DNA from: Patescibacteria group bacterium
Lineage (GTDB): Bacteria; Patescibacteriota; Patescibacteriia; JAQUQO01
NCBI GenBank assembly: GCA_028716045.1
Contig: JAQUQO010000001.1
Location: 632,961 to 696,960 of the forward strand
Length of the DNA: 64,000 nucleotides
Direction of reading: 5' to 3'
The position numbers and the translations under genes were made by a program. Below are positions 3,151 through 63,950 of the stretch, piece after piece. Positions within the stretch are counted from its first letter, which is position 1. The number at the start of each line of letters is the position of its first letter. The notes beneath the pieces were generated by a model. That model had not been told where the DNA came from. It was given only the letters and a program-made list of their open reading frames with translations, and did not search any database.

Positions 3151-4731
3151 CTACTCCAACAAATTTGTGCCTGTCATTTCTTTGGCCAAGGGCAAGCCGA
3201 TTTGGGAAAGCAGAGTCGGCGCCACATCGGAAAGAACACCAATCGGAGAATTGACCGAAAGGTCTTTGCTTTCCGCCGGTAAAATTATTTTCCCTTCGTG
3301 TTTACTGCTGACGGTGATAAACGGCACAGGATAGACGCTATGTTCCTTATCCGGCTTTTGGGTTTGTAAATTAACCAATTCCTCGGCATTACCATGGTCG
3401 CCGACAATAAACACTATTCCTCCCCTACCCACCGCTTCACTCACCACCCGTTCAACGCATTTGTCCACCGTTTCTATGGCTTTAATCGTTGCCGCTAAAT
3501 TGCCGGTATGGCCGACCATATCCGGATTAGCATAATTAATCGCGATAAAATCATATTTATCTGCTTTGATGGCTTTAACGAGATTATCGGTCACTTCCAC
3601 GGCGGACATCTCTGGCTGGGTGTCATAATTCGTTACTGCCGGAGAAGGAATCAAAATTCTTTCTTCGCCGGCAAATTTCTCTTCTTGCAGGCCATTGAGG
3701 AAAAAAGTAACGTGGGCATACTTTTCGGTTTCGGCAATGTGCAGCTGCTTTAACTTATGGTCGCTGAAAATCTTAGCCAAAGGATTTTTGATAATTTGCG
3801 GCAGAAAAACGACTTCCACGGGCAAACCCTTTTTATATTCCACAAAGGTAACAAAGGTCAGGCCTTTCAAAAATTCTTTTTCAAATTCTTTAAATTCCGG
3901 CTCCACAAACGTTTCGGTTAATTGGCGGGCGCGGTCGGCGCGGTAGTTAAAAAATATTACCGCGTCATTTTTATCAATGGTCGCCAAAGGATTATCTTTA
4001 CGGTCGGTGATAACAACCGGAACAAATTCCTCATCAAAAACTTCATTTTTATAGGACTCTTCAATGGCTTTAAGGGGGTCGTTGATTTTTTTCTCGGCTT
4101 CGCCCAAAGCAATGGCCCGGTAGGCCTTTTCAATTCTATCCCAATTGCTGTTTCTATCCATAGCGTAAAAGCGGCCGGAAACAGAAGCCACTTCGGCTTT
4201 GACTTTTTTGGCCTGGCCTAAAATTTCCTTCATAAATCCTTTGCCAGAATCTTTGGCGCTGTCGCGGCCATCCAAAAAAGCATGGATAAACACTTTGCCT
4301 TTCAATTTATTTTTTTTACAAAAATCCAGAAGTGCGTAAAGATGCCTTTGGTGAGCGTGGACGCCGCCGTTGCCGATTAACCCCAAAAGATGGAGTTTGG
4401 AATCGTGCTTTTTAACTTTCTCCACCGCTTTCATTAAATTGGGCTCTTTGAAAAAATCTCCGGATTCAATGGATTTGTCAATGCGCGGCAAACTTTGGTA
4501 AAGCAATGCCCCGGAACCGATATTAACATGGCCCACTTCAGAATTGCCCACTTCTCCCCAAGGCAAGCCCACATTAAGGCCCGCAGCCTCAAGCAGCATG
4601 GTGGGATAATTTTTAATCAACTTATCTAAAAAGGGCGTCTGGGCCGACCAAACGGCGTTGGTTTTATCAGGCGGAGCAATGCCAAATCCGTCCAAAATCA
4701 TGAGAACCGCCGGCTTAAACTTCAAACCCAT
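3151..4731 (-). CDS. gpmI: 2,3-bisphosphoglycerate-independent phosphoglycerate mutase.
   Basis: 526 aa. The N-terminal VLMILDGFG...NSEVGHVNIG metal-binding motifs are typical of iPGM. Confidence 0.95.
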   Translation of the reverse strand: MGLKFKPAVLMILDGFGIAPPDKTNAVWSAQTPFLDKLIKNYPTMLLEAAGLNVGLPWGEVGNSEVGHVNIGSGALLYQSLPRIDKSIESGDFFKEPNLMKAVEKVKKHDSKLHLLGLIGNGGVHAHQRHLYALLDFCKKNKLKGKVFIHAFLDGRDSAKDSGKGFMKEILGQAKKVKAEVASVSGRFYAMDRNSNWDRIEKAYRAIALGEAEKKINDPLKAIEESYKNEVFDEEFVPVVITDRKDNPLATIDKNDAVIFFNYRADRARQLTETFVEPEFKEFEKEFLKGLTFVTFVEYKKGLPVEVVFLPQIIKNPLAKIFSDHKLKQLHIAETEKYAHVTFFLNGLQEEKFAGEERILIPSPAVTNYDTQPEMSAVEVTDNLVKAIKADKYDFIAINYANPDMVGHTGNLAATIKAIETVDKCVERVVSEAVGRGGIVFIVGDHGNAEELVNLQTQKPDKEHSVYPVPFITVSSKHEGKIILPAESKDLSVNSPIGVLSDVAPTLLSQIGLPLAKEMTGTNLLE

Positions 4732-4743
4732 ATATATATAAAA

Positions 4744-4977
4744 TTATTTTTTAAACTTGGAAAAAATATCCCCTATCTTTTTGTCGGTCTCTTCCAAATC
4801 AGTTACAATTTGTTTCTTCTTATAATCATCCGCTTCTTTTTCATAATTTACCACCAACATATTGCGGTCATAGATAATATTGGTCACCGCCGGCAAAATC
4901 TTCATTTTTAAATCAGGGTCTTTGATGTTATGTTCTTTAAAATATTGCTCAATTGATTTTTGCTCTAATTTTGGCAT
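4744..4977 (-). CDS. Small hypothetical protein (77 aa).
   Basis: ORF with a plausible upstream TATAAT on the minus strand (about 4985-5005) and a weak RBS. Bracketed by the gpmI stop and the terminator at 5027-5058. Confidence 0.4.
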   Translation of the reverse strand: MPKLEQKSIEQYFKEHNIKDPDLKMKILPAVTNIIYDRNMLVVNYEKEADDYKKKQIVTDLEETDKKIGDIFSKFKK

Positions 4978-20241: not shown

Positions 20242-20260
20242 ATTAAAAATTTAATTCTAG

Positions 20261-20503
<243 letters not shown>

Positions 20504-31704: not shown

Positions 31705-32427
31705 ATGCCGGAATTAAGCATTATCATCCCAACTTTGAACGAAGAGGATTTTTTGCCCCTTCTCTTGTCTTCAATCCAAAAACAGACCTACAAAAATTAC
31801 GAAGTGATTGTGGCCGATGCCGGTTCCACTGACGGAACGGTAGAAATAGCCAAACAGTTTGGCTGCAAAATAACCTCCGGCGGCTTGCCGGCGACAGGGA
31901 GAAACCGGGGGGCGGAAGCGAGTGGGGGCGAACTTTTTCTCTTTTTGGATTCTGACGTGATGCTCCCGAAAAATTTTCTCGCCAACACTATAAACGAATT
32001 CAGAAAAAGGAAACTGGATATCGCCACCTGCGGCGTTTATCCGTTAAGCGATAAAAAAATAGATAAATTCCTGCACTTGGCCGTCAATTCTTTTTTTAAA
32101 ACCGTGCAATTCTTCTCCCCACACGCTCCGGGATTCTGCATTCTGATTAAAAACGACATCCATAAAAATATCGGCGGGTTTAATGAACAAATCCTGTTGG
32201 CCGAAGACCATGATTACGTTAAACGCGCCGCCAAGGTCGGAAAATTCCGCTTTCTCCAATCGGAAAAAATTCCGGTTTCCGTCAGAAGATTAGATCGCGA
32301 CGGCAGAGCAAAAATCGCCCTAAAATATATTCTTTGCGAGGCCTATCTGGTATTTAAAGGGCCGATTGTTTCCGATATTTTCCATTACCGCTTTGCTCAT
32401 TATAAAGACAAGGAAAAGGTTAAATAA
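31705..32427 (+). CDS. Family-2 glycosyltransferase.
   Basis: 240 aa. LSIIIPTLNEE...VIVADAGSTDGT...DSD pattern. Confidence 0.85.
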   Translation: MPELSIIIPTLNEEDFLPLLLSSIQKQTYKNYEVIVADAGSTDGTVEIAKQFGCKITSGGLPATGRNRGAEASGGELFLFLDSDVMLPKNFLANTINEFRKRKLDIATCGVYPLSDKKIDKFLHLAVNSFFKTVQFFSPHAPGFCILIKNDIHKNIGGFNEQILLAEDHDYVKRAAKVGKFRFLQSEKIPVSVRRLDRDGRAKIALKYILCEAYLVFKGPIVSDIFHYRFAHYKDKEKVK

Positions 32428-34293: not shown

Positions 34294-34435
34294 ACTTGGC
34301 TTTTTTATTTCTAAAATCCAAATCAATTATAGTAAAAAATATAGCTACTGGCAAATAAAAAATAACCAAATTCCATAACCCTTTGATTATTGGTTTTTGG
34401 TTATTATTATAGTGCGCCAGGATGCCCCGTCATTC

Positions 34436-34570
34436 GACGGGGTCTCCGCTACGCTCCGAGATTTGGCCGTCCCGCCAGAAGTAAGTGGAGTCAGGAACCT
34501 GCCTGCCGGTCCGCTTCGCCATAGCGGTAGCGAGGCGAGCAGGCAGGCCATTGACCCCCGCTTTACCCGC
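34436..34570 (+). ncRNA. Candidate signal-recognition-particle RNA (4.5S/ffs-like). Tentative.
   Basis: A GC-rich, ORF-poor stretch. GGGGUCUCCGCUACGCUCCGAG resembles the E. coli 4.5S 5' region, AGCAGGCAGGCCAUUGAC resembles the domain IV 3' strand, and the 5' GGGGUC can pair with the 3' GACCCC. A TATTATAGT -10-like element lies at 34404-34412. Confidence 0.4.
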
Positions 34571-34620
34571 CCGCCGGCGTAAAAATAAATTATTAACCTA
34601 CCGACCAAAAATGTAAACTT

Positions 34621-34697
34621 TGGTGGGCATGGATGGATTTGAACCATCGACCCCCACTTTATAAGAGTGGTGCTCTAACCAACTGAGCTACATGCCC
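34621..34697 (-). tRNA. tRNA-Ile with anticodon TAT (UAU).
   Basis: GGGCATGTAGCTCAGTTGGTTAGAGCACCACTCTTATAAAGTGGGGGTCGATGGTTCAAATCCATCCATGCCCACCA, with anticodon loop CTTATAA. Confidence 0.85.
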
Positions 34698-34782
34698 CTA
34701 AAGCGTTTTCCCGATGAGCGGGCTACTGGTGCGAATTGTAAAATTAGTATAACAAAATAATATCTAAATTTCAATAATTTAC

Positions 34783-34822
34783 AAAAAAGGCCCACATTCG
34801 CAAGACGAATGTGGGCAAGGGT
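34783..34822 (-). terminator. Rho-independent terminator with an 11-bp stem.
   Basis: GCCCACATTCGcaagaCGAATGTGGGC with a T-run on the minus strand. Confidence 0.7.
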
Positions 34823-34841: not shown

Positions 34842-35594
34842 TTAGGAAGCTGCGGCCTCGCGGGGACGGAGACCGCCGCCGCAGCCAAAGCCGGGATGGA
34901 AGCAACCGACCCTGAACTCGCCACCGGCATCTAAGCTGACGTGCGGAACGTTGCCATAGGAATCGCGCGAACCGGCGCAGAGCGTCCAATTATGGATGTC
35001 AAGGTGCTTACCGCCGGTTTTCCAGTGATACCACAGCCCAAGCGATAACCGTTCAAGTAATGTGATAGTGGTTATTTCCTTGGAGGCGATTTGATTGGCC
35101 GAAGTGTTTTTCCATTCCTCATCGGCCTCCACGCGGTCCCGGAAACGGACAGCGTAAGCGCCGATTTTGGCCGGGTCGCGCTCGTTGATTGGCACGGCTT
35201 GGTCCAAGTCATCGCCATAATACGACCAGTATTCCTTGAACCGCTCTTGGCACTTGGCCCAGGCGCGATTCAGAGTCATCTCGGCCGGTACCAAAAGGAG
35301 CCAACCAAATCTTTGGCGTTCGGGAGGCAACACAACTTGGGTCGCATCCACCGTAAGACCAAAGACCTCTTGATAAAAGCGGACTATTTCCTCAAGTTGG
35401 ATATCCAACTTTGACTCGGTGTCACCCAGCGCTTCGCGCAGGCGCTTGGTCAACAGGCCTTTACGGCCCTGCCTGCTAATCCAAAATTTCTTTTGCTCTG
35501 GCGTCAGATTTCGCGGTAAACTGTTAACCACCGCTGACACGAACTCCAACGTTTGTCCATCATCGGTTTGTCGGACCTTCTCATCTTTTCCCAT
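34842..35594 (-). CDS. Hypothetical protein (250 aa). Strongly GC-rich relative to the rest of the window.
   Basis: Long ORF with a terminator. By eye G+C is about 55% or more, against about 38% in the window overall. No recognisable motifs. Confidence 0.65.
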   Translation of the reverse strand: MGKDEKVRQTDDGQTLEFVSAVVNSLPRNLTPEQKKFWISRQGRKGLLTKRLREALGDTESKLDIQLEEIVRFYQEVFGLTVDATQVVLPPERQRFGWLLLVPAEMTLNRAWAKCQERFKEYWSYYGDDLDQAVPINERDPAKIGAYAVRFRDRVEADEEWKNTSANQIASKEITTITLLERLSLGLWYHWKTGGKHLDIHNWTLCAGSRDSYGNVPHVSLDAGGEFRVGCFHPGFGCGGGLRPREAAAS

Positions 35595-40377: not shown

Positions 40378-41904
40378 CTAGTCCGCTTTTGGTCGATATT
40401 GCAAGGCCTCGGCCACATATTCAGTAGTAATCTCCTCGCTCCCCGCCAAGTCGGCAATGGTGCGCGCCAATTTCAAAACGCGGTGGTAAGAACGCGCCGA
40501 GAGCCGCATCTGGGCCACGGCATTGCGCAAAAGCTCGCGCGTGTCTTCTCTAAGCGGACAAAACTTTTTAACTTCTTCCGATGACATCTCGCTATTGGCA
40601 AAAATGCCCGATTTGCCAAAACGCTCTCTTTGCCTCCCCCGCGCCGCTTCCACTCGCCCGCGGATATCCGCCGAACTTTCTCCGTGGTTGTCACTGACCA
40701 TTTTTTCAAAATCAATCTGCGGCACTTCAATATGAATATCAATGCGGTCCAAAAGCGGACCGGAAACCTTTTTCTGATATTTTAAAATCTGCATGGGCGA
40801 ACAGGTGCAAATTCTTTTGGGGTCAGAAGCGTAACCGCAAGGACAGGGATTTTGCGCCGCCACCAAAATAAACTTGGCGGGGAATTCCACCGTGCCGGAA
40901 ACGCGCGAAACCGCCACCACGCCATCCTCCAGCGGCTGGCGCAAATTTTCCAGCACCCGCCGGTCAAACTCCGGAAACTCGTCCAGAAATAAAATTCCGC
41001 GGTGCGCCAAAGAAATTTCTCCCGGCTTGGGCCAGGTCCCGCCGCCGACCAACGCCACGCCCGAAGCGGTGTGATGCGGACTGCGGAAAGGACGCTTTCT
41101 CGCCACTGGCTGATTGGGTGGTAACAACCCGGCGGCGGAATAAACGCGGGTTATCTCCAGCGACTCCTCCACGGTCAAATTAGGCAGAATAGTGGGGATT
41201 GTCCGCGCTAAAAAAGTTTTTCCTGAACCCGGCGGTCCGCTCATTAAAATGTTATGCGCTCCGGCGGCGACAATTTCCAGCGCCCGCTTGGCCTGTTCCT
41301 GCCCTTTAATGTAAGCCATGTCCGCTGAACCATAATCAACATTTTGAAGTTCACTTTGAAAATCCAACGGCTCCACCTCCGGCGGTATTTTTTCTTTTTG
41401 TAAAAACTGAATGAGCTCGCTTAAATTTTTCACCGGAATAATTTTTACTCCGCTGATTAAACTCGCCTCGCGCGCGTTCGGCTCCGGCAAATAAACTTTC
41501 TCAAATCCTTTTTCCCGCGCCATCAGCATCAGCGAGATAACTCCATTCACTCCCCGCACCTCACCGTCCAGCGCCAGTTCGCCTACTAAAATTGACTTAG
41601 ATAGATCCTCCTTAAGCAAAATCTGTTCCGAGGCCAACAGTAAACTCAAAGCCATCGGCAAATCGTAAGCCGGCCCTTCTTTCCTGATGTCCGCCGGCGC
41701 CAAATTGGCCGCCACCCTTCCCCGCGGAAACTGAAAACCGCTGTTTTTTATGGCTGACCGCACGCGCTCGCGCGACTCCTGCACCGCCGTATCCGGCAAA
41801 CCGACAACAATAAAATTGGCCAAACCGGAAGAAACGTCCGCCTCCACTTCAATGGGCGCGCAAAAAAGGCCGATAGCGGCCGAAGAAAAAACTTTTGCCG
41901 ACAT
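40378..41904 (-). CDS. comM: YifB/ComM-family Mg-chelatase-like AAA+ ATPase.
   Basis: 508 aa with an N-terminal Lon-like domain, Walker A (GPPGSGKT) and C-terminal helices. Confidence 0.9.
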   Translation of the reverse strand: MSAKVFSSAAIGLFCAPIEVEADVSSGLANFIVVGLPDTAVQESRERVRSAIKNSGFQFPRGRVAANLAPADIRKEGPAYDLPMALSLLLASEQILLKEDLSKSILVGELALDGEVRGVNGVISLMLMAREKGFEKVYLPEPNAREASLISGVKIIPVKNLSELIQFLQKEKIPPEVEPLDFQSELQNVDYGSADMAYIKGQEQAKRALEIVAAGAHNILMSGPPGSGKTFLARTIPTILPNLTVEESLEITRVYSAAGLLPPNQPVARKRPFRSPHHTASGVALVGGGTWPKPGEISLAHRGILFLDEFPEFDRRVLENLRQPLEDGVVAVSRVSGTVEFPAKFILVAAQNPCPCGYASDPKRICTCSPMQILKYQKKVSGPLLDRIDIHIEVPQIDFEKMVSDNHGESSADIRGRVEAARGRQRERFGKSGIFANSEMSSEEVKKFCPLREDTRELLRNAVAQMRLSARSYHRVLKLARTIADLAGSEEITTEYVAEALQYRPKAD

Positions 41905-50006: not shown

Positions 50007-50134
50007 CGCCTGCCTCCTTTCTTGTGATTTTAAAGACCGTTTAAAACGTTTATACCTTATCATTTTGCTTAAAAACTTTCAACTGTTTGCCTAAAAATCA
50101 AAAGTGTCGTAAAATAAAAACAGTATCTAATCGT

Positions 50135-51118
50135 ATGAAAAGAGAAACGCCAACAAAAATTAATCCTTCTTCTCCTCTCGCCAAACTCCTCGGGGAATTC
50201 TTGGACTATTTAGAGATAGAAAAAAACCGCAGCCGGATGACACGGCGCAATTATGAATTTTATCTGGGGAGATTTTTACGCTGGTTAGAATTAAAAAAGA
50301 GCCGACTGGCTCCCGAAGATATCACCGCTGAAAATGTGCGCCAATACCGCCTCTGGCTCAATCGCTTGGCCGAAGATAGCGGACAGCCGCTTAAAAAAAG
50401 CACGCAGAATTATCATCTCATCGCCCTGCGCTCATTTTTAAAATATCTCGCCAAGCGCGACATTAAAACTCTGGCGCCGGAAAAAATTGAGCTGGCTAAA
50501 ATCGGCGAGCGCACGGTGGAATTTTTAGAAGGGTCGGACTTGGAAAAATTTTTGGAAGCGCCCCTGCTCATCAAAAATCCGGACATTATTAAAAAAAGAG
50601 ACAAGGCGATTCTGGAAACGCTTTTTGCCACCGGTCTGCGCGTTTCGGAATTAAGTAATTTAAAAATTGACCAAATCAATCTAAAAAAGGACGAATTCAC
50701 GGTCCGCGGCAAGGGCGACAAACCGCGCGTGGTTTTTTTATCCAATCAAGCCAAATACTGGATTAAAGAATACCTGGACGCCCGCACTGACCCCAACCCC
50801 TTTTTGTTTATGGGACACGACCGCGCCAGCGCCAAAAGGGAAATGAAAAAAATTCCCAAACTGACCCCGCGCAGTATCCAGCGGCTCGTGGAAAAATACG
50901 CCAAAGTCGCCGGTCTCACCAAAAAAATAACTCCCCACACCTTGCGCCACAGCTACGCCACCGACCTGCTGATGAATGGCGCTGACATCCGTTCGGTACA
51001 AGCCATGCTCGGCCATGCCAGCATTACCACTACCCAGATTTACACTCACATCACCAACCAGCAACTGCGTGAAGTGCACAAAGCCTTTCACGGCCGACAA
51101 CGTCAAAAAAATAAATAA
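50135..51118 (+). CDS. Tyrosine recombinase, XerC/XerD family.
   Basis: C-terminal R...HxxR...Y catalytic pattern (LRHSYATDLL...GHASITTTQIYTH). Start chosen at the ATG at 50135; the track starts at 50087 with a non-ATG codon. Confidence 0.85.
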   Translation: MKRETPTKINPSSPLAKLLGEFLDYLEIEKNRSRMTRRNYEFYLGRFLRWLELKKSRLAPEDITAENVRQYRLWLNRLAEDSGQPLKKSTQNYHLIALRSFLKYLAKRDIKTLAPEKIELAKIGERTVEFLEGSDLEKFLEAPLLIKNPDIIKKRDKAILETLFATGLRVSELSNLKIDQINLKKDEFTVRGKGDKPRVVFLSNQAKYWIKEYLDARTDPNPFLFMGHDRASAKREMKKIPKLTPRSIQRLVEKYAKVAGLTKKITPHTLRHSYATDLLMNGADIRSVQAMLGHASITTTQIYTHITNQQLREVHKAFHGRQRQKNK

Positions 51119-51657: not shown

Positions 51658-51732
51658 GGCCCCGTAGTTCAAAGGATAGAATAGAAGCCTTCTAAGCTTT
51701 AGATCTAGGTTCGATTCCTAGCGGGGTCACCA
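51658..51732 (+). tRNA. tRNA-Arg (anticodon TCT).
   Basis: GGCCCCGTAGTTCAAAGGATAGAATAGAAGCCTTCTAAGCTTTAGATCTAGGTTCGATTCCTAGCGGGGTCACCA. Confidence 0.9.
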
Positions 51733-51750
51733 AAAAATTTAATAATCATG

Positions 51751-51824
51751 GCGGCCATAGTTTAACGGTAGAACAGCGGATTGTGGCTCCGCTGGCCTGG
51801 GTTCAACTCCCAGTGGCCGCCCCA
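51751..51824 (+). tRNA. tRNA-His (anticodon GTG) with an encoded G-1.
   Basis: G-GCGGCCATAGTTTAACGGTAGAACAGCGGATTGTGGCTCCGCTGGCCTGGGTTCAACTCCCAGTGGCCGCCCCA. Confidence 0.9.
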
Positions 51825-60852: not shown

Positions 60853-61398
60853 TTAACAAGAGGATTGGTCGCCATGTTCGCATTTGCATTTATAATCCCA
60901 CGGTTCACATTGAGTTTCCCATTCTTTGATTTCGCTTTCTGATGGATTTTCCAGAGCAATATTTTTAATGACATTCTCCACGATAAAAATCCAAATGGAG
61001 ACTGACAGTAAAACTATGGCTATGCCGATGACGCCGTTAAACAATAACTTTTTAGCTTTTTCTATATTTTGCTCATTCCCGCCGGCCGTCATCCAGACAA
61101 AACCGGCGTATACAATCACTCCCAAAAACACCAGGCCTAAAAACCCGCCGGCATATCTGATAAGCGTAGCCATAAAAAGAAAAATGTTGTTAACTCTGCT
61201 GGAAGAAAAATACAATGTCTCGCCGGCCGTAGCGCCCAATTGCTTTTCTATATCTTGCTCACCGCTTTTATCTAAAAACAACGGCCGATTGATATCCGGC
61301 GTGGTTTGCAAGGCCTGCACGGTGTTGCTTACAAAAATCAAACCGAAAAATAGAATCACTGCGGAAATAAAAATTATACCTAATTGCTTCTTACTCAT
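60853..61398 (-). CDS. TrbC/VirB2-like pilin-family paralog 1 (181 aa) with an extra Cys-rich C-terminal tail.
   Basis: Signal peptide, then TM1, then VYAGFVWMTAGGNEQNIEKAKK, then TM2. C-terminus CEPWDYKCKCEHGDQSSC. Confidence 0.6.
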   Translation of the reverse strand: MSKKQLGIIFISAVILFFGLIFVSNTVQALQTTPDINRPLFLDKSGEQDIEKQLGATAGETLYFSSSRVNNIFLFMATLIRYAGGFLGLVFLGVIVYAGFVWMTAGGNEQNIEKAKKLLFNGVIGIAIVLLSVSIWIFIVENVIKNIALENPSESEIKEWETQCEPWDYKCKCEHGDQSSC

Positions 61399-61406
61399 AA
61401 TACAAA

Positions 61407-61865
61407 TTATTTGACTTTCACGCCCGCGCCTATGGTTTTTTGCGAAATCGCCTCGTATAAAATGCGGTTGATGGTGTAAGTAATACTAACCGAGAGAAAA
61501 ATAATCAAAACCGCTATCACCGCGTTGACTATCATTTTTTTAGCTTTGCCAAGCTGGTCTTCGTTGCCGCCGGCCGTCAGCCATAAATATCCGCCGTAAA
61601 TCATCAAAATAACAAAAATAAAGCCCACAAAGAGCAAAACGTATTGGATGAGGGAAACGATTACTAAGCGAATGTCTTGGCTTTCGCCCGTGGCATATTT
61701 GGCTTCTTTGCCGGCTTCACCTAATTGGTTGAGGGGGCTTAGAACAGAAGTTCCTCCTTCGCCGAACGTCGGCTCCTGAGCCAGGGAAATCTGCGGCTGA
61801 CAAAAAATAAAAAAAGCCCCGGATAAAACAGCGGCTGTGATTGTTAGAATTAAAAAATGTTTCAT
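61407..61865 (-). CDS. TrbC/VirB2-like pilin-family paralog 2 (152 aa).
   Basis: Signal peptide (…ISLAQEP), TM1, IYGGYLWLTAGGNEDQLGKAKK, TM2. Confidence 0.6.
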   Translation of the reverse strand: MKHFLILTITAAVLSGAFFIFCQPQISLAQEPTFGEGGTSVLSPLNQLGEAGKEAKYATGESQDIRLVIVSLIQYVLLFVGFIFVILMIYGGYLWLTAGGNEDQLGKAKKMIVNAVIAVLIIFLSVSITYTINRILYEAISQKTIGAGVKVK

Positions 61866-61874
61866 AATCGCTGG

Positions 61875-62273
61875 CTAAACAAAAATGGCGACAATCGTTC
61901 TGGTAATAATATAGGCAGCCATCGTAATACCCAAACCAATACTGGCGTCAATAATGATGGTTTTTGATTTGGTAATCTTTTCTTCATTGCCCCGGGCGAG
62001 CATCCAATTGACACCTCCGTAAACCACTAAAACCAAAAAAATCGTGCCTACTAGCACTAAAAGCGCGCCGATGCCCCCACCTACTCTGGCCGCGAGCGTC
62101 GTTTCTCCCACCTCTCCAAATCCGCCCGCGCCCACCCCGGCGGCGGTTTTTAATCTTTCAAAATAACTTTCTTTAAAACTTTTCGGTTCTGCGGCCAATA
62201 AAACAGCCGGAAAAAAATAAACAGCGGCTAATAAAAAATATCTTATTTCTTTGAAAAAATTAAATTTCGCCAT
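61875..62273 (-). CDS. TrbC/VirB2-like pilin-family paralog 3 (132 aa).
   Basis: Signal peptide, Gly-rich linker, VYGGVNWMLARGNEEKITKSK, TM2. Confidence 0.6.
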   Translation of the reverse strand: MAKFNFFKEIRYFLLAAVYFFPAVLLAAEPKSFKESYFERLKTAAGVGAGGFGEVGETTLAARVGGGIGALLVLVGTIFLVLVVYGGVNWMLARGNEEKITKSKTIIIDASIGLGITMAAYIITRTIVAIFV

Positions 62274-62276
62274 AAT

Positions 62277-62720
62277 TTAGGTAGAAAATAAAAACGTGGA
62301 AACTGTCCAAACGATGGCGTAAGCCAAAAATATGACAATAAGACCGGTAACGGCGTTTCTAATGATTCCCTTGGACTTGTCTATAATTTCGGATTCGCCT
62401 CTGGCCGTCATCCACTTTACTCCTCCGTAAACCATCAAGACAAGAAAAACTACGCCTATCACTGATAATAAACCGACAATCGCTCCGGCAATCTTTGATT
62501 CTAAACTATCACCCGTTCTTAACCCGGCCTTTTCAGCTGCTGAACCCAAAATATCAGTGGCATCTTTAAAATTTGTCTGCATGTCAGGGTTAGGTTCGGA
62601 TTGCCCAACATTATCATCGGCAAAAACTGCCGGTGAAGAACAAAACATTAAGCAGAAAAAAAATCCCAATAGAATAATTGTAAAAATACTTCTCGTTGTC
62701 ATAAATTTAACCGCCTCCAA
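62277..62720 (-). CDS. TrbC/VirB2-like pilin-family paralog 4 (147 aa).
   Basis: Signal peptide, VYGGVKWMTARGESEIIDKSK, TM2. Confidence 0.6.
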   Translation of the reverse strand: MEAVKFMTTRSIFTIILLGFFFCLMFCSSPAVFADDNVGQSEPNPDMQTNFKDATDILGSAAEKAGLRTGDSLESKIAGAIVGLLSVIGVVFLVLMVYGGVKWMTARGESEIIDKSKGIIRNAVTGLIVIFLAYAIVWTVSTFLFST

Positions 62721-63138
62721 AAATTAATCTATTAAGCACAAACTCCACTATAAAATAAGAAAGGGCCACGACCACAACGCCAATAATCGCATTGACGATT
62801 GTATCCTTGGATTTTTCCACTTTTTGTTCATTCCCCCTAGCAATCATCCAATTGATACCGCCATAAATCATCAATATTAAAAATATCACTCCGACAAAGG
62901 TCAAAGCTGAACCAAGTAAACTTCCTATTAATGCCGCTAAATTTGTTGAAGTTGCTAACTCTCCTTCCTCGGCTCCGGGAATACCGGCCTCTTTGGCTGT
63001 CGTACCCAATCCATAATCATCATTCTTCTCCTGCGCGGCGGAAGGCAAAACGCCAAACCACCCAAAAATCAAAAAAGCCACTAAAAAAATAATGGCTAAA
63101 GAAAAAATTGAATAAATTTTCTTATCCTTGCTTTTCAT
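62707..63138 (-). CDS. TrbC/VirB2-like pilin-family paralog 5 (143 aa).
   Basis: Signal peptide, IYGGINWMIARGNEQKVEKSK, TM2. Overlaps paralog 4 by 14 nt. Confidence 0.6.
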   Translation of the reverse strand: MKSKDKKIYSIFSLAIIFLVAFLIFGWFGVLPSAAQEKNDDYGLGTTAKEAGIPGAEEGELATSTNLAALIGSLLGSALTFVGVIFLILMIYGGINWMIARGNEQKVEKSKDTIVNAIIGVVVVALSYFIVEFVLNRLIFGGG

Positions 63139-63193
63139 TGGAAATATTCATTAGGCCCCTTGTCTTATAAAAACAAGGGGCCCGTATTAGATA

Positions 63194-63571
63194 TTAGCTG
63201 GTGGCTTCAATCAATCCCCTGATAACAAAGGTGGCGATGGAATAAGCGGCTAAAACAATGGCTAAACCAATGACACCCTGCATCAAAAGCTTCTTCGCTT
63301 CGCTGACTTTATCTTCATTGCCCGCGGCAGTCATCCATTTAAATCCGCCGACTAAAATAATCACTACTGCCAGAGTTCCGAGAAAGCCCATTATCACCTT
63401 GATAATATTGGCGATGGTCTCGCGAATATCGGTGCTGGTCAATCCGGTTTGAGTCAAATACTCCAGACCGGGGTCAATATCCGTTTGCGCCAAGACCGCT
63501 CCCGGCAAAATCACTAAGGCAAAAAGGACAAAAAATCCCATTGCCCAAGAAAAAAGCGTTTTTAACTTCAT
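63194..63571 (-). CDS. TrbC/VirB2-like pilin-family paralog 6 (125 aa).
   Basis: Signal peptide (…GAVLAQT), LVGGFKWMTAAGNEDKVSEAKK, TM2. Confidence 0.6.
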   Translation of the reverse strand: MKLKTLFSWAMGFFVLFALVILPGAVLAQTDIDPGLEYLTQTGLTSTDIRETIANIIKVIMGFLGTLAVVIILVGGFKWMTAAGNEDKVSEAKKLLMQGVIGLAIVLAAYSIATFVIRGLIEATS

Positions 63572-63611
63572 AATTGTTAATTTCCTTATTTAAAAATTAT
63601 TTAAAATCGTC

Positions 63612-63950
63612 TTATTTTTGCGTCAAAGTTGCTATAACAAAACCGACTAAGATATAACTGGCGAAAATGATAACCAGCCCGATGGCCGACCAAAGCAAAA
63701 TATCCCTGCCTTTCTTTATTTTATCAGCATTTCCGGCTGATGTCAACCAAATTAATCCTCCGTAAATGAACATTGCCAGGGCGATAGAGCCAACAATCCC
63801 CATAATCGCTTTAATAACACCGCCGATGGCTGTTTGCGGGTCACTAAATTTTAACGGATTTTTAAGTTGAATCGCGGCATAAACCGGCATAAACGACAAA
63901 AAAAATACGGTTAGGCTGATAAAAACGTTTCTTAAAACTTTCCTAAACAT
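63612..63950 (-). CDS. TrbC/VirB2-like pilin-family paralog 7 (112 aa).
   Basis: Signal peptide (…PVYAA), IYGGLIWLTSAGNADKIKKGR, TM2. Confidence 0.6.
   Translation of the reverse strand: MFRKVLRNVFISLTVFFLSFMPVYAAIQLKNPLKFSDPQTAIGGVIKAIMGIVGSIALAMFIYGGLIWLTSAGNADKIKKGRDILLWSAIGLVIIFASYILVGFVIATLTQK

Follow-up and report, generated by a model that had tools for sequence, protein, structure and literature searches.

A tRNA-Ile(UAU) gene nested within a decayed tRNA-Ile(UAU) gene as the probable AUA decoder of a Patescibacteria bacterium

Reading AUA, and not AUG, as isoleucine is the task of tRNA-Ile2(CAU), lysidine and TilS, an enzyme found in 98% of bacteria and described as 'evolutionarily stable' (PMC6063277). 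Mycoplasma mobile reads AUA without TilS by means of a tRNA-Ile(UAU) (Taniguchi et al. 2013, PMC3575796). Such tRNAs were counted in 19 species according to tRNADB-CE (PMC4013482) and in 17 bacterial genomes according to tRNAscan-SE 2.0 (PMC8450103), which names them tRNA-Ile3(UAU); Bifidobacterium, Neorickettsia, and 'Ca. Spiroplasma holothuricola' carry tRNA-Ile3(UAU), and a 2026 preprint still terms the UAU tRNA-Ile 'rare cases'. Herein, we analyzed a tRNA-Ile gene with a genomically encoded UAU anticodon in a 64-kb stretch of DNA (hereafter the window) from a Patescibacteria group bacterium. Taking all results jointly, we consider it probable that this tRNA is the AUA decoder of the bacterium, likely replacing the CAU/TilS route, and that it forms the inner part of a nest of two tRNA genes. 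The tRNA itself belongs to the known TilS-independent UAU decoders, and its prevalence in Patescibacteria and its nested structure go beyond the descriptions that we found.

Like the tRNA of M. mobile, the gene in the window places a genomic UAU on an Ile-type body (A73, A37, A38) in a small reduced genome, with indirect signs that the CAU/TilS route is absent. Unlike in M. mobile, the trait belongs to about half of a phylum-level radiation rather than to an isolated species, AUA is a common codon, and a disrupted older copy surrounds the gene. The feature of the isoleucyl-tRNA synthetase (IleRS) that marks the M. mobile type is Arg or Lys in place of E. coli Trp905, or else a eukaryote-type IleRS. 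With tRNA-Ile2(CAU) and TilS the tRNA shares its task, and other Patescibacteria use that route, nearly all complete Saccharimonadia and JAEDAM01 genomes having three CAU tRNAs. However, the anticodon TAT is encoded, so there is no C34 to modify, and complete Patescibacteria genomes nearly always have just one of the two solutions.

The nested arrangement resembles several described systems in part. The group I intron tRNAs of Patescibacteria (2026, PMC13011429) come from the same phylum and are interrupted precisely at the same 35/36 site without target duplication, whereas the inserts described here are 107–169 nt long, follow A35 instead of U, have no match to RF00028, and consist of complementary arms around a complete tRNA of the same anticodon, one of them lying in a D loop. 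The tRNA fragments of integrative elements (attL/attR, PMC9897764) are likewise half-tRNAs beside an intact tRNA with breaks in the anticodon or T loop, and in the split or permuted tRNA genes known from Archaea and red algae, GC-rich complementary sequences adjoin the halves, as in Nanoarchaeum. Unlike both, the two outer halves here lie on either side of an intact gene, on the same strand and within about 320 nt, with no island, integrase, or bulge-helix-bulge motif, and the host is a bacterium.

ARAGORN called a tRNA-Ile with the anticodon tat at positions 34621–34697 on the minus strand, a strand that an earlier note on this DNA had not given. Matching Rfam RF00005 over its full length (1–71) with 77.7 bits and an E value of 2.4e-15, the gene had the top Rfam score among the eight window tRNAs found by ARAGORN. 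Its letters are GGGCATG TA GCTC AGTTGGTTA GAGC A CCACT CTTATAA AGTGG GGGTC GATGG TTCAAAT CCATC CATGCCC A CCA, which form a canonical cloverleaf with an encoded TAT, every stem (7/5/5) being fully closed by standard pairs. The anticodon loop reads C32 U33 U34 A35 U36 A37 A38, the discriminator is A73, and the CCA end is genomically encoded. The identity elements of E. coli IleRS are A73, C4:G69, U12:A23, C29:G41, A37, A38, A35, and U36; as Ile-type features, the gene has A73, C4:G69, U12:A23, A35, U36, A37, and A38. These results bear out the tRNA with a genomic UAU anticodon, a CU-UAU-AA loop and Ile-like features proposed in the earlier note. Two points weigh against the assignment: position 29:41 is A:U (A29:U41), the family majority being G:C, and whole-sequence identity fails to separate Ile from Val, Met, and Lys bodies. 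Isotyping by identity to E. coli tRNAs was non-discriminating and was given no weight.

A pattern scan of species-representative genomes, combining a tRNA-Ile-type D arm with CTTATAA, matched at least 120 species genomes. Among the matches listed, 81 came from named lineages of the candidate phyla radiation (CPR), including Parcu-, Pacei-, Magasanik-, Falkow-, Komeili-, Peri-, Peregrini-, Dojka-, Shapiro-, Doudna-, Sung-, Portnoy-, and Saccharibacteria as well as SR1; 17 came from 'uncultured Gammaproteobacteria' metagenome-assembled genomes (MAGs), 12 had no lineage name, and 10 were from other phyla including Bifidobacterium. At least six of the 'Gammaproteobacteria' MAGs (L012, L066, L092, L094, L096, and L117, where L with a number labels a compared locus taken from another genome or assembly) share the synteny of valyl-tRNA synthetase (ValRS) and tRNA-Val with named CPR loci. 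ARAGORN re-called a tRNA-Ile(tat) in essentially every matched locus. Of the 117 homologous tRNA-Ile(tat) genes compared, each taken from a different species genome, all had A73 and 94 had C4:G69. All stem pairs were formed in 95 of 119 pattern matches, with several different pair types at each stem position; such stems, kept paired via many different pair types, indicate that the genes of this family are functional. The earlier note had called a genomic UAU anticodon rare. This fails in Patescibacteria, considering the matches above and the second non-CAU tRNA-Ile in about 45 of 95 complete genomes described below: the UAU tRNA-Ile is uncommon in the literature, not in Patescibacteria.

The same pattern occurred on at least 120 viral contigs of IMG/VR, 80 viral loci being listed (L134–L213), and the matches in non-CPR genomes may be prophage-borne. 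In a Ruminococcus MAG (L075, 1–8000), the tRNA-Ile(tat) lies in a 15-gene tRNA array together with a transfer-messenger RNA (tmRNA) and a 'Pyl' tRNA with a cta anticodon. In a Flavobacterium MAG (L052, 3276–3463), the tRNA-Ile(tat) equals an adjacent, divergent tRNA-Ile(gat) except for G34T, which looks like either a UAU tRNA recently derived from the major tRNA-Ile or a variant introduced by sequencing or assembly.

The genome of the window is a Patescibacteria (CPR) MAG, probably of class ABY1. The window has a GC content of about 42% and is rich in housekeeping genes (ValRS, the arginyl- and tyrosyl-tRNA synthetases ArgRS and TyrRS, GroEL, NusA, YidC, pyruvate kinase, and PNPase). GroEL and a 250-aa protein encoded beside the tRNA-Ile have identical counterparts in GCA_028711565.1 ('Patescibacteria group bacterium'). 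The closest named relatives are Falkowbacteria for GroEL, and Magasanikbacteria and Uhrbacteria for the 250-aa protein; we take all three to belong to class ABY1. The window tRNA matched CPR chromosomal genes at up to 69 of 74 positions and viral genes at no more than 61 of 74, and it is flanked by UvrD, DJ-1, RlmD-like, GT2, DHH, and ValRS genes. Since it is closer to CPR than to viral copies and has cellular neighbors, we regard it as a chromosomal CPR gene. A phage- or prophage-borne tRNA-Ile(UAU) was rejected on the same comparison and flanks, together with a PHROG search that gave no matches for the tRNA-neighbor proteins tested.

AUA was used heavily, as the codon-usage check suggested in the earlier note revealed: 266 of 17,206 codons in the 53 window genes were AUA (15.5 per 1000, 18% of Ile codons), and it was found in 53 of 53 genes, including those for GroEL, ValRS, and NusA, AUG standing at 17.6 per 1000. 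Five of the six alignable AUA positions of GroEL were mostly Ile in 119 homologues and the sixth was Leu. As AUA sites align with Ile in the GroEL homologues, the codon keeps its standard meaning. No tilS, CAU tRNA, or IleRS gene was found in the 64-kb window, where a Pfam search of the 53 main open reading frames (ORFs) gave no PF01171, and there was no tilS or CAU tRNA in the 10 kb beyond it (L125). The tblastn search with E. coli TilS over about 0.95 Mb of loci gave only one weak match, but about one tilS would be expected there by chance, so this result carries little weight; the weak match, in L095, is QueC beside QueE. With E. coli IleRS, tblastn of the window and 120 loci returned only ValRS paralogues. 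CAU tRNAs, usually two, were clustered with the tRNA-Ile(tat) in 15 loci and comprised one of initiator type, with C1 opposite A72, and one of elongator type, with G2:C71, C3:G70, and A/U at 4:69. None of the CAU tRNAs in these 15 loci was Ile2-like or had an Ile-like acceptor stem.

Table S2 of Nakagawa et al. (mSystems 2026, PMC13011429) gives per-genome tRNA counts for 95 complete Patescibacteria genomes, by amino acid and without anticodons. We transcribed and tallied these counts as follows:

One tRNA-Ile and at least three CAU tRNAs: 50 of 95 genomes
At least two tRNA-Ile and at most two CAU tRNAs: 40 of 95 genomes
Both (at least two tRNA-Ile and at least three CAU tRNAs): 5 of 95 genomes

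The two states were nearly exclusive (Fisher p = 1e-21). The two-Ile state was that of Microgenomatia (12/12), Dojkabacteria (7/7), Paceibacteria (15/20), ABY1 (4/4), and Gracilibacteria (2/5), and the three-CAU state that of Saccharimonadia (34/36) and JAEDAM01 (7/7). The tally suggests that about 45 of the 95 complete genomes carry a second non-CAU tRNA-Ile, which we infer to be UAU, in agreement with the classes in the pattern scan. On this basis, about half of the phylum appears to have swapped TilS and tRNA-Ile2(CAU) for tRNA-Ile(UAU). The evidence also favors, indirectly, the loss of TilS, 40 of the 45 two-Ile genomes having at most two CAU tRNAs. Replacement of tRNA-Ile2(CAU) and TilS by the tRNA-Ile(UAU), as in Mycoplasma mobile, is most likely in the genome of the window too, judging from these phylum-level data, and both would then be absent from it. 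Weighing against this are the lack of anticodons in Table S2 and the presence of three CAU tRNAs in two of the four complete ABY1 genomes; with ABY1 split two against two, redundancy is quite possible in this class. The two-state pattern is not discussed in PMC13011429, and we found no literature on CPR in connection with tilS, lysidine, or a TAT anticodon.

The tRNA-Ile of the window lies inside an insert that splits an older tRNA-Ile(UAU) gene between A35 and U36, at the center of the palindrome TTA/TAA. The features of this nest and its surroundings, listed from 5' to 3', are:

34842–35594, minus strand: conserved CPR hypothetical protein of 250 aa, outside the tRNA unit (271 homologues; no Pfam, NCBIfam, or PHROG match)
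34790–34816, minus strand: intrinsic terminator of the upstream 250-aa gene, separating it from the tRNA unit (12-bp stem and T run; kept in L254)
34746–34774, minus strand: sigma-70-like promoter, TTGAAA-17-TATACT, with an extended TG (consensus scan, 10/12)
34723–34732, minus strand: remnant of the outer tRNA-Ile 5' half, GCACCAG TA G, positions 1–10 (pairs 6/7 with CTGGCGC at 34420–34414)
34713–34722, minus strand: eroded left insert arm CCCGCTCATC, which is CCCGCCTGCC in L254, L131, and L132
34621–34697, minus strand: inner intact tRNA-Ile(UAU) with encoded CCA (ARAGORN, Rfam, paired stems, A73; 74/76 identical to L254)
34566–34577, minus strand: right insert arm CCGGCGGGCGGG, GC-rich (complementary to the left arm in relatives; conserved in L008, L131, L132, L133, and L254)
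34548–34565, minus strand: start of the outer 3' half, with U36 A37 A38, AGCGG, variable loop GGGTC, and 5' T-stem strand AATGG
34421–34547, minus strand: GC-rich (about 67%) structured insertions in the former outer T-loop region (fold z −3.7 on the minus strand and −4.8 on the plus strand)
34413–34420, minus strand: outer acceptor 3' strand CTGGCGC and A73 (same pair GCGCCAG/CTGGCGC in the intact tRNA-Ile(tat) of L032)

The promoter lies 14 nt 5' of the first base of the outer gene and probably drives the whole nest; its sequence hardly differs between the window and L254, in contrast to coding DNA, which is only about 73% identical. In the outer 5' half, positions ~11–35 are lost, a 25-nt gap relative to L254 that covers the D arm and the 5' strand of the anticodon stem. 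The block 34548–34565 is identical to the inner tRNA at 16 of 18 positions and to other CPR tRNA-Ile(tat) genes at 17 of 18. Right arm and outer 3' block together are 40/43 (93%) identical between the window and L254, whereas the spacer is about 50% identical. Compared with intact tRNA-Ile(tat) genes from other genomes, the outer segments agree at as many as 35 of 39 variable positions (L081). The 67%-GC stretch 34577–34420 (minus strand) starts 43 nt 3' of the inner tRNA and opens with CCGGCGGGCGGG-TAAAGCGGGGGTCAATGG, of which the TAAAGCGGGGGTCAATGG part copies tRNA-Ile positions 36–53. The insertions at 34421–34547 hold a 50-nt hairpin at 34547–34498 (CCTGCCTGC...GCAGGCAGG) and another at 34442–34425, and a shorter hairpin occupies the same T-loop-region site in L254. 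Rfam gave only chance-level matches for 34420–34580. Signal recognition particle (SRP) RNA, tmRNA, and RNase P were rejected by eye for this stretch. In the NCBI assembly (L001), a 61-aa gene is annotated across the GC-rich outer tRNA-Ile remnant (34397–34582, plus strand); this ORF is probably spurious, because relatives differ there by large indels.

The syntenic relative L254, whose UvrD is 76% identical, shows the arrangement more completely: after the same promoter come a full outer 5' half ending ...CCACT CTTA, then CCCGCCTGCC, the inner tRNA, GGCGGGCAGG, and, across the second junction, TAAAGTGGGGGTCGATGG. The alignment with L254, the 6/7 acceptor pairing, and the 35/39 match indicate that the window tRNA-Ile is the inner gene of a nest whose outer member is a decayed tRNA-Ile(UAU). 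In L131, the intact tRNA is preceded by GCGCTGG TA GATC...CCACT CTTA and CCCGCCTGCC, and followed by GGCGGGCAGG and then TAA AGTGG GGGTC GATGG TTCGAAT CCATC CCAGCGC A. Removal of the 107 nt between A35 and U36 from L131 yields a canonical tRNA-Ile(tat) with a 7/7 acceptor stem, and the insert ends pair at 9 of 10 positions. A 25-nt motif made of the right arm and the outer 3' start lies 20–70 nt 3' of the tRNA-Ile(tat) in L008, L131, L132, and L133. The flanking half-tRNAs are unlikely to be assembly artefacts, because the arrangement recurs in the NCBI MAG (L001), which is 100% identical, in L254, an independent assembly from Logan, and in a number of further assemblies. The earlier note suggested that the tRNA may mark an integration hotspot next to the GC-rich neighboring ORF. 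A tRNA site was indeed disrupted, but the place is another one: the tRNA gene itself lies within a broken older tRNA-Ile(UAU) gene and has no integration link to that ORF.

According to the mechanism that we propose, transcription would start from the sigma-70-like promoter at 34774–34746, and RNase P would trim a leader of about 35 nt, the CCA being already encoded. IleRS would charge the tRNA through A73, C4:G69, U12:A23, A37/A38, and A35-U36, and U34 would pair with the third-position A of AUA. Candidate safeguards against misreading of AUG are a modification of U34, an adapted IleRS, and discrimination by the ribosome. The insert, a GC-rich left arm, the tRNA, and a complementary GC-rich right arm, would have entered the older gene between A35 and U36. 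The outer gene has decayed since then, with 25 nt lost from the 5' half and GC hairpins inserted in the T-loop region. We prefer to think that the insert arrived as a cassette with a replacement tRNA that later became essential.

A second nest was found in the window, at a tRNA-Val(UAC):

20482–20503, minus strand: outer tRNA-Val(UAC) 5' exon, GGACGAC TA GCTC AGTTGGTTA
20313–20481, minus strand: insert of 169 nt in the outer tRNA-Val D loop, with left arm CTTGCCCGCCGCCAT, inner tRNA-Val(UAC) at 20424–20349, and right arm ATGGCAGGCGGG
20261–20312, minus strand: outer tRNA-Val(UAC) 3' exon

When 20503–20482 was joined to 20312–20261, a canonical tRNA-Val(tac) with every stem paired was obtained. 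The weak 70-nt 'tRNA-Val' called by ARAGORN at 20260–20329 (Rfam 35.8 bits) is the outer 3' exon plus the right arm. The exact motif GGCRGGCRGG occurs three times in the 64-kb window, all within the two nests, with about 0.1 expected by chance. The UMPH-1 gene beside the Val nest was not syntenic in three relatives.

Partial 3' copies lay 3' of 8–10 of 107 tRNA-Ile(tat) genes, the corresponding counts being 0–2 for the 132 other tRNAs of these loci and 1–2 for upstream controls. A stricter search, for an intact T arm plus a 7/7 acceptor complement across an intact tRNA, recovered nests at Ile(tat) in L021, L026, and L098, at Val(tac) in L116, and at Arg(cct) in L120, with one match in the control; a sixth match, at the Pro(tgg) gene of the Ruminococcus array L075, may be due to chance. 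The cases comprise Ile-UAU with the break at 35/36, Val-UAC with a break in the D loop or else at 35/36, and Arg-CCU; there is no target duplication, and most insertions come after TTA. Removal of the insert restored a canonical tRNA-Ile(tat) in L026 as in L131. The arms of L120 belong to the same GC-rich family, whereas those of L026 and L116 are AT-rich yet pair (z = −6.4 and −6.0); overall, the arms paired better than shuffled sequences (z = −6.4, −6.0, −4.5, and −3.2). L098, L025, L077, L037, and L040 have direct repeats in place of a clean insertion. ARAGORN in intron mode mostly produced chimeras of neighboring tRNAs at the nests and was not used.

Outer tRNA copies with long perfect hairpin insertions in the D and T loops were observed in L026 (3963–4270), L077 (6700–7230), and L132; one insert of L026, for example, starts with TCCGGTAGTGAATTTTCGGC and ends with GCCGAAAATCTACTACCGGA. 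As several CPR outer copies carry them, hairpin insertions seem to accumulate in tRNA-like sequences. In L008 (~4730–4750), about 170 nt 3' of the nest, a fragment, GCACGACTCTTA followed directly by CC, copies the 5' half of the inner tRNA and ends exactly at A35, so the A35/U36 junction appears to be a recurrent break point.

Taken broadly, we offer, with somewhat less than even confidence, the view that Patescibacteria harbor an undescribed element or architecture, in which complementary arms (often CCYGCCYGCC and GGCRGGCRGG) around a complete tRNA sit inside a tRNA gene of the same anticodon, either as a tRNA-replacing mobile cassette or as a nested or split tRNA processed at the RNA level, and that about half of the phylum has replaced TilS and tRNA-Ile2(CAU). 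Several observations weigh against the cassette. The inner tRNAs all differ between nests while the arms are conserved, and no transposase or integrase was found in or beside any nest. The outer acceptor stems differ between genomes, each still pairing 6–7 of 7 (GCGCTGG/CCAGCGC, CGCCTTT/AAAGGCG, and GCACCAG/CTGGCGC). Differing inner tRNAs, kept acceptor pairing, and the conserved right arm and 3' block fit an old, possibly functional architecture equally well.

Such an inherited functional nest, in which the outer tRNA is intron-like or split and the arm-tRNA-arm segment is removed from the RNA, seems to us unlikely on balance. RNase P and RNase Z would free the inner tRNA, the arm helix would hold the outer halves for cleavage and ligation, and one promoter would yield two tRNAs, or a tRNA and a tRNA-like RNA. 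It accords with the outer tRNA-Val of the window and the outer tRNA-Ile of L131 and L026 being perfect after insert removal, with acceptor stems that vary by genome and still pair, with arm pairing kept despite differing arms (AT-rich in L026 and L116, GC-rich elsewhere), and with the 93% conservation of right arm and outer 3' block beside a spacer of about 50%. The 35/36 site is also used by self-splicing group I introns located within the Asn and Asp tRNAs of Patescibacteria (PMC13011429). However, the outer tRNA-Ile of the window lacks positions ~11–35, the outer tRNA of L254 lacks the 3' strands of both the T stem and the acceptor stem, and the boundaries form no bulge-helix-bulge motif. 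The inserts of 107–169 nt, tRNA included, have no group I core. A group I intron was rejected for want of an RF00028 match at the gathering threshold or E ≤ 1 and because A35, not U, precedes the insert, which does end in G. We know of no bacterial enzyme set for bulge-helix-bulge-type splicing. More doubtful still is that the half-tRNAs are scars of the insertion and excision of a genomic island or prophage by an integrase at a tRNA att site. The classic order would be intact tRNA, island, and 3' fragment, while here an outer 5' half also lies upstream (L254, L131, L026, and the Val nest of the window); the junctions carry no duplicated core, the pieces are only 40–190 nt apart, no integrase is nearby, the nearest recombinase gene being 15 kb off (50087–51118), and an attP search found the junction or 3'-half motif on no viral contig. 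What recommends it is that integrases targeting tRNA genes classically leave 3' partial copies that start in the anticodon or T loop, fragments known to confuse tRNA annotation (PMC9897764), that 20–50-nt direct repeats of the tRNA 3' part occur in L040, L098, L025, L077, and L090, and that phages often carry tRNA-Ile(tat). An integrase att-site fragment was rejected for the window tRNA-Ile in view of the separate outer 5' half (the remnant at 34732–34723, complete in L254, L131, and L026) and the lack of an island, integrase, or repeated core.

As for decoding, the tRNA may instead be redundant, with tilS and tRNA-Ile2(CAU) kept and the UAU tRNA adding AUA capacity. This has been proposed for Lactobacillus casei, Cyanothece, and Ferrimonas, and bacteria with both systems are documented (Taniguchi et al. 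2013, PMC3575796). Five of the 45 two-Ile complete genomes, among them the two of ABY1, have at least three CAU tRNAs. With the other 40 having at most two, with only initiator and elongator CAU tRNAs beside the tRNA-Ile(tat) in the 15 loci, and with a high AUA use in all genes that fits a dedicated major decoder, we regard redundancy as improbable for this genome. That the gene is not an Ile tRNA but a mutated tRNA-Met or tRNA-Ile2(CAU), a tRNA of another isotype, a pseudogene, or an AUA-reassigning tRNA is hardly credible. The uninformative whole-body identity would allow it, but the gene is the top-scoring tRNA of the window, its family is conserved in more than 117 species genomes with an invariant A73 and mostly C4:G69, the neighboring CAU tRNAs have other acceptor stems with A4:U69-type pairs, and AUA aligns with Ile, not Met, in the GroEL homologues. 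We retain the reading of a tRNA-Ile(UAU) that would be charged by IleRS and would read AUA in place of the CAU/TilS route, carried by an insert that may have come as a cassette.

The neighboring ORF at 34842–35594 was called strongly GC-rich and probably foreign in the earlier note. Its GC content is indeed higher than that of the window (54.7% versus 42%), but since housekeeping genes reach 52.9% (a Mg-chelatase/ComM-like ATPase gene at 40378–41904; PNPase, 49.2%), it is no strong outlier. Nor is it foreign: all named homologues among the 271 are from CPR, indicating a conserved CPR family. The gene lies on the 5' side of the tRNA-Ile behind its own terminator, and the order UvrD, 250-aa gene, tRNA-Ile is kept in one relative (L254); two further homologue loci (L260 and L261) have no tRNA nearby. 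The ORF is not recent foreign cargo and has no integration link to the tRNA. In L256 (3001–5599) and L261 (597–3197), homologues adjoin a diversity-generating retroelement (bAvd and RVT_1), and the family may be a variable protein of the type targeted by such retroelements; the window has no reverse transcriptase.

Elsewhere in the window, a tyrosine recombinase gene (Phage_integrase and SAM-like N domain, XerC/D-like) at 50087–51118 on the plus strand is separated by about 0.5 kb, with an MgtC gene in between, from a pair of tRNA genes, tRNA-Arg(tct) and tRNA-His(gtg), at 51658–51824 (plus strand). A tandem array of at least seven small type IV secretion system (T4SS) pilin paralogues (PF18895/TrbC-like) beside a DUF2079 membrane protein spans 60853–63950 on the minus strand and continues into L125. 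Contig JAQTRY010000002.1 of GCA_028711565.1 stops at about position 32118 of the window, inside the GT2 gene at 31705–32427, which the window reads through; the window thus belongs to a fuller assembly of that organism.

If the proposed replacement is true, about half of Patescibacteria solve the problem of AUA versus AUG without lysidine while using AUA frequently, and they would be by far the largest such bacterial group known. Given the unusual ribosomes of Patescibacteria, IleRS recognition, U34 modification, and ribosomal discrimination would become testable in a new setting, and there would be a bearing on TilS as an antibacterial target and phylogenetic marker. Standard annotation misreads the nests, as the weak extra 'tRNA-Val' of ARAGORN and the 61-aa gene placed over the Ile remnant in the NCBI assembly illustrate. 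The nests imply that essential single-copy tRNA genes in minimal genomes have been disrupted and replaced, or are processed, and they may represent a mobile element, or a way of organizing bacterial tRNA genes, that is new.

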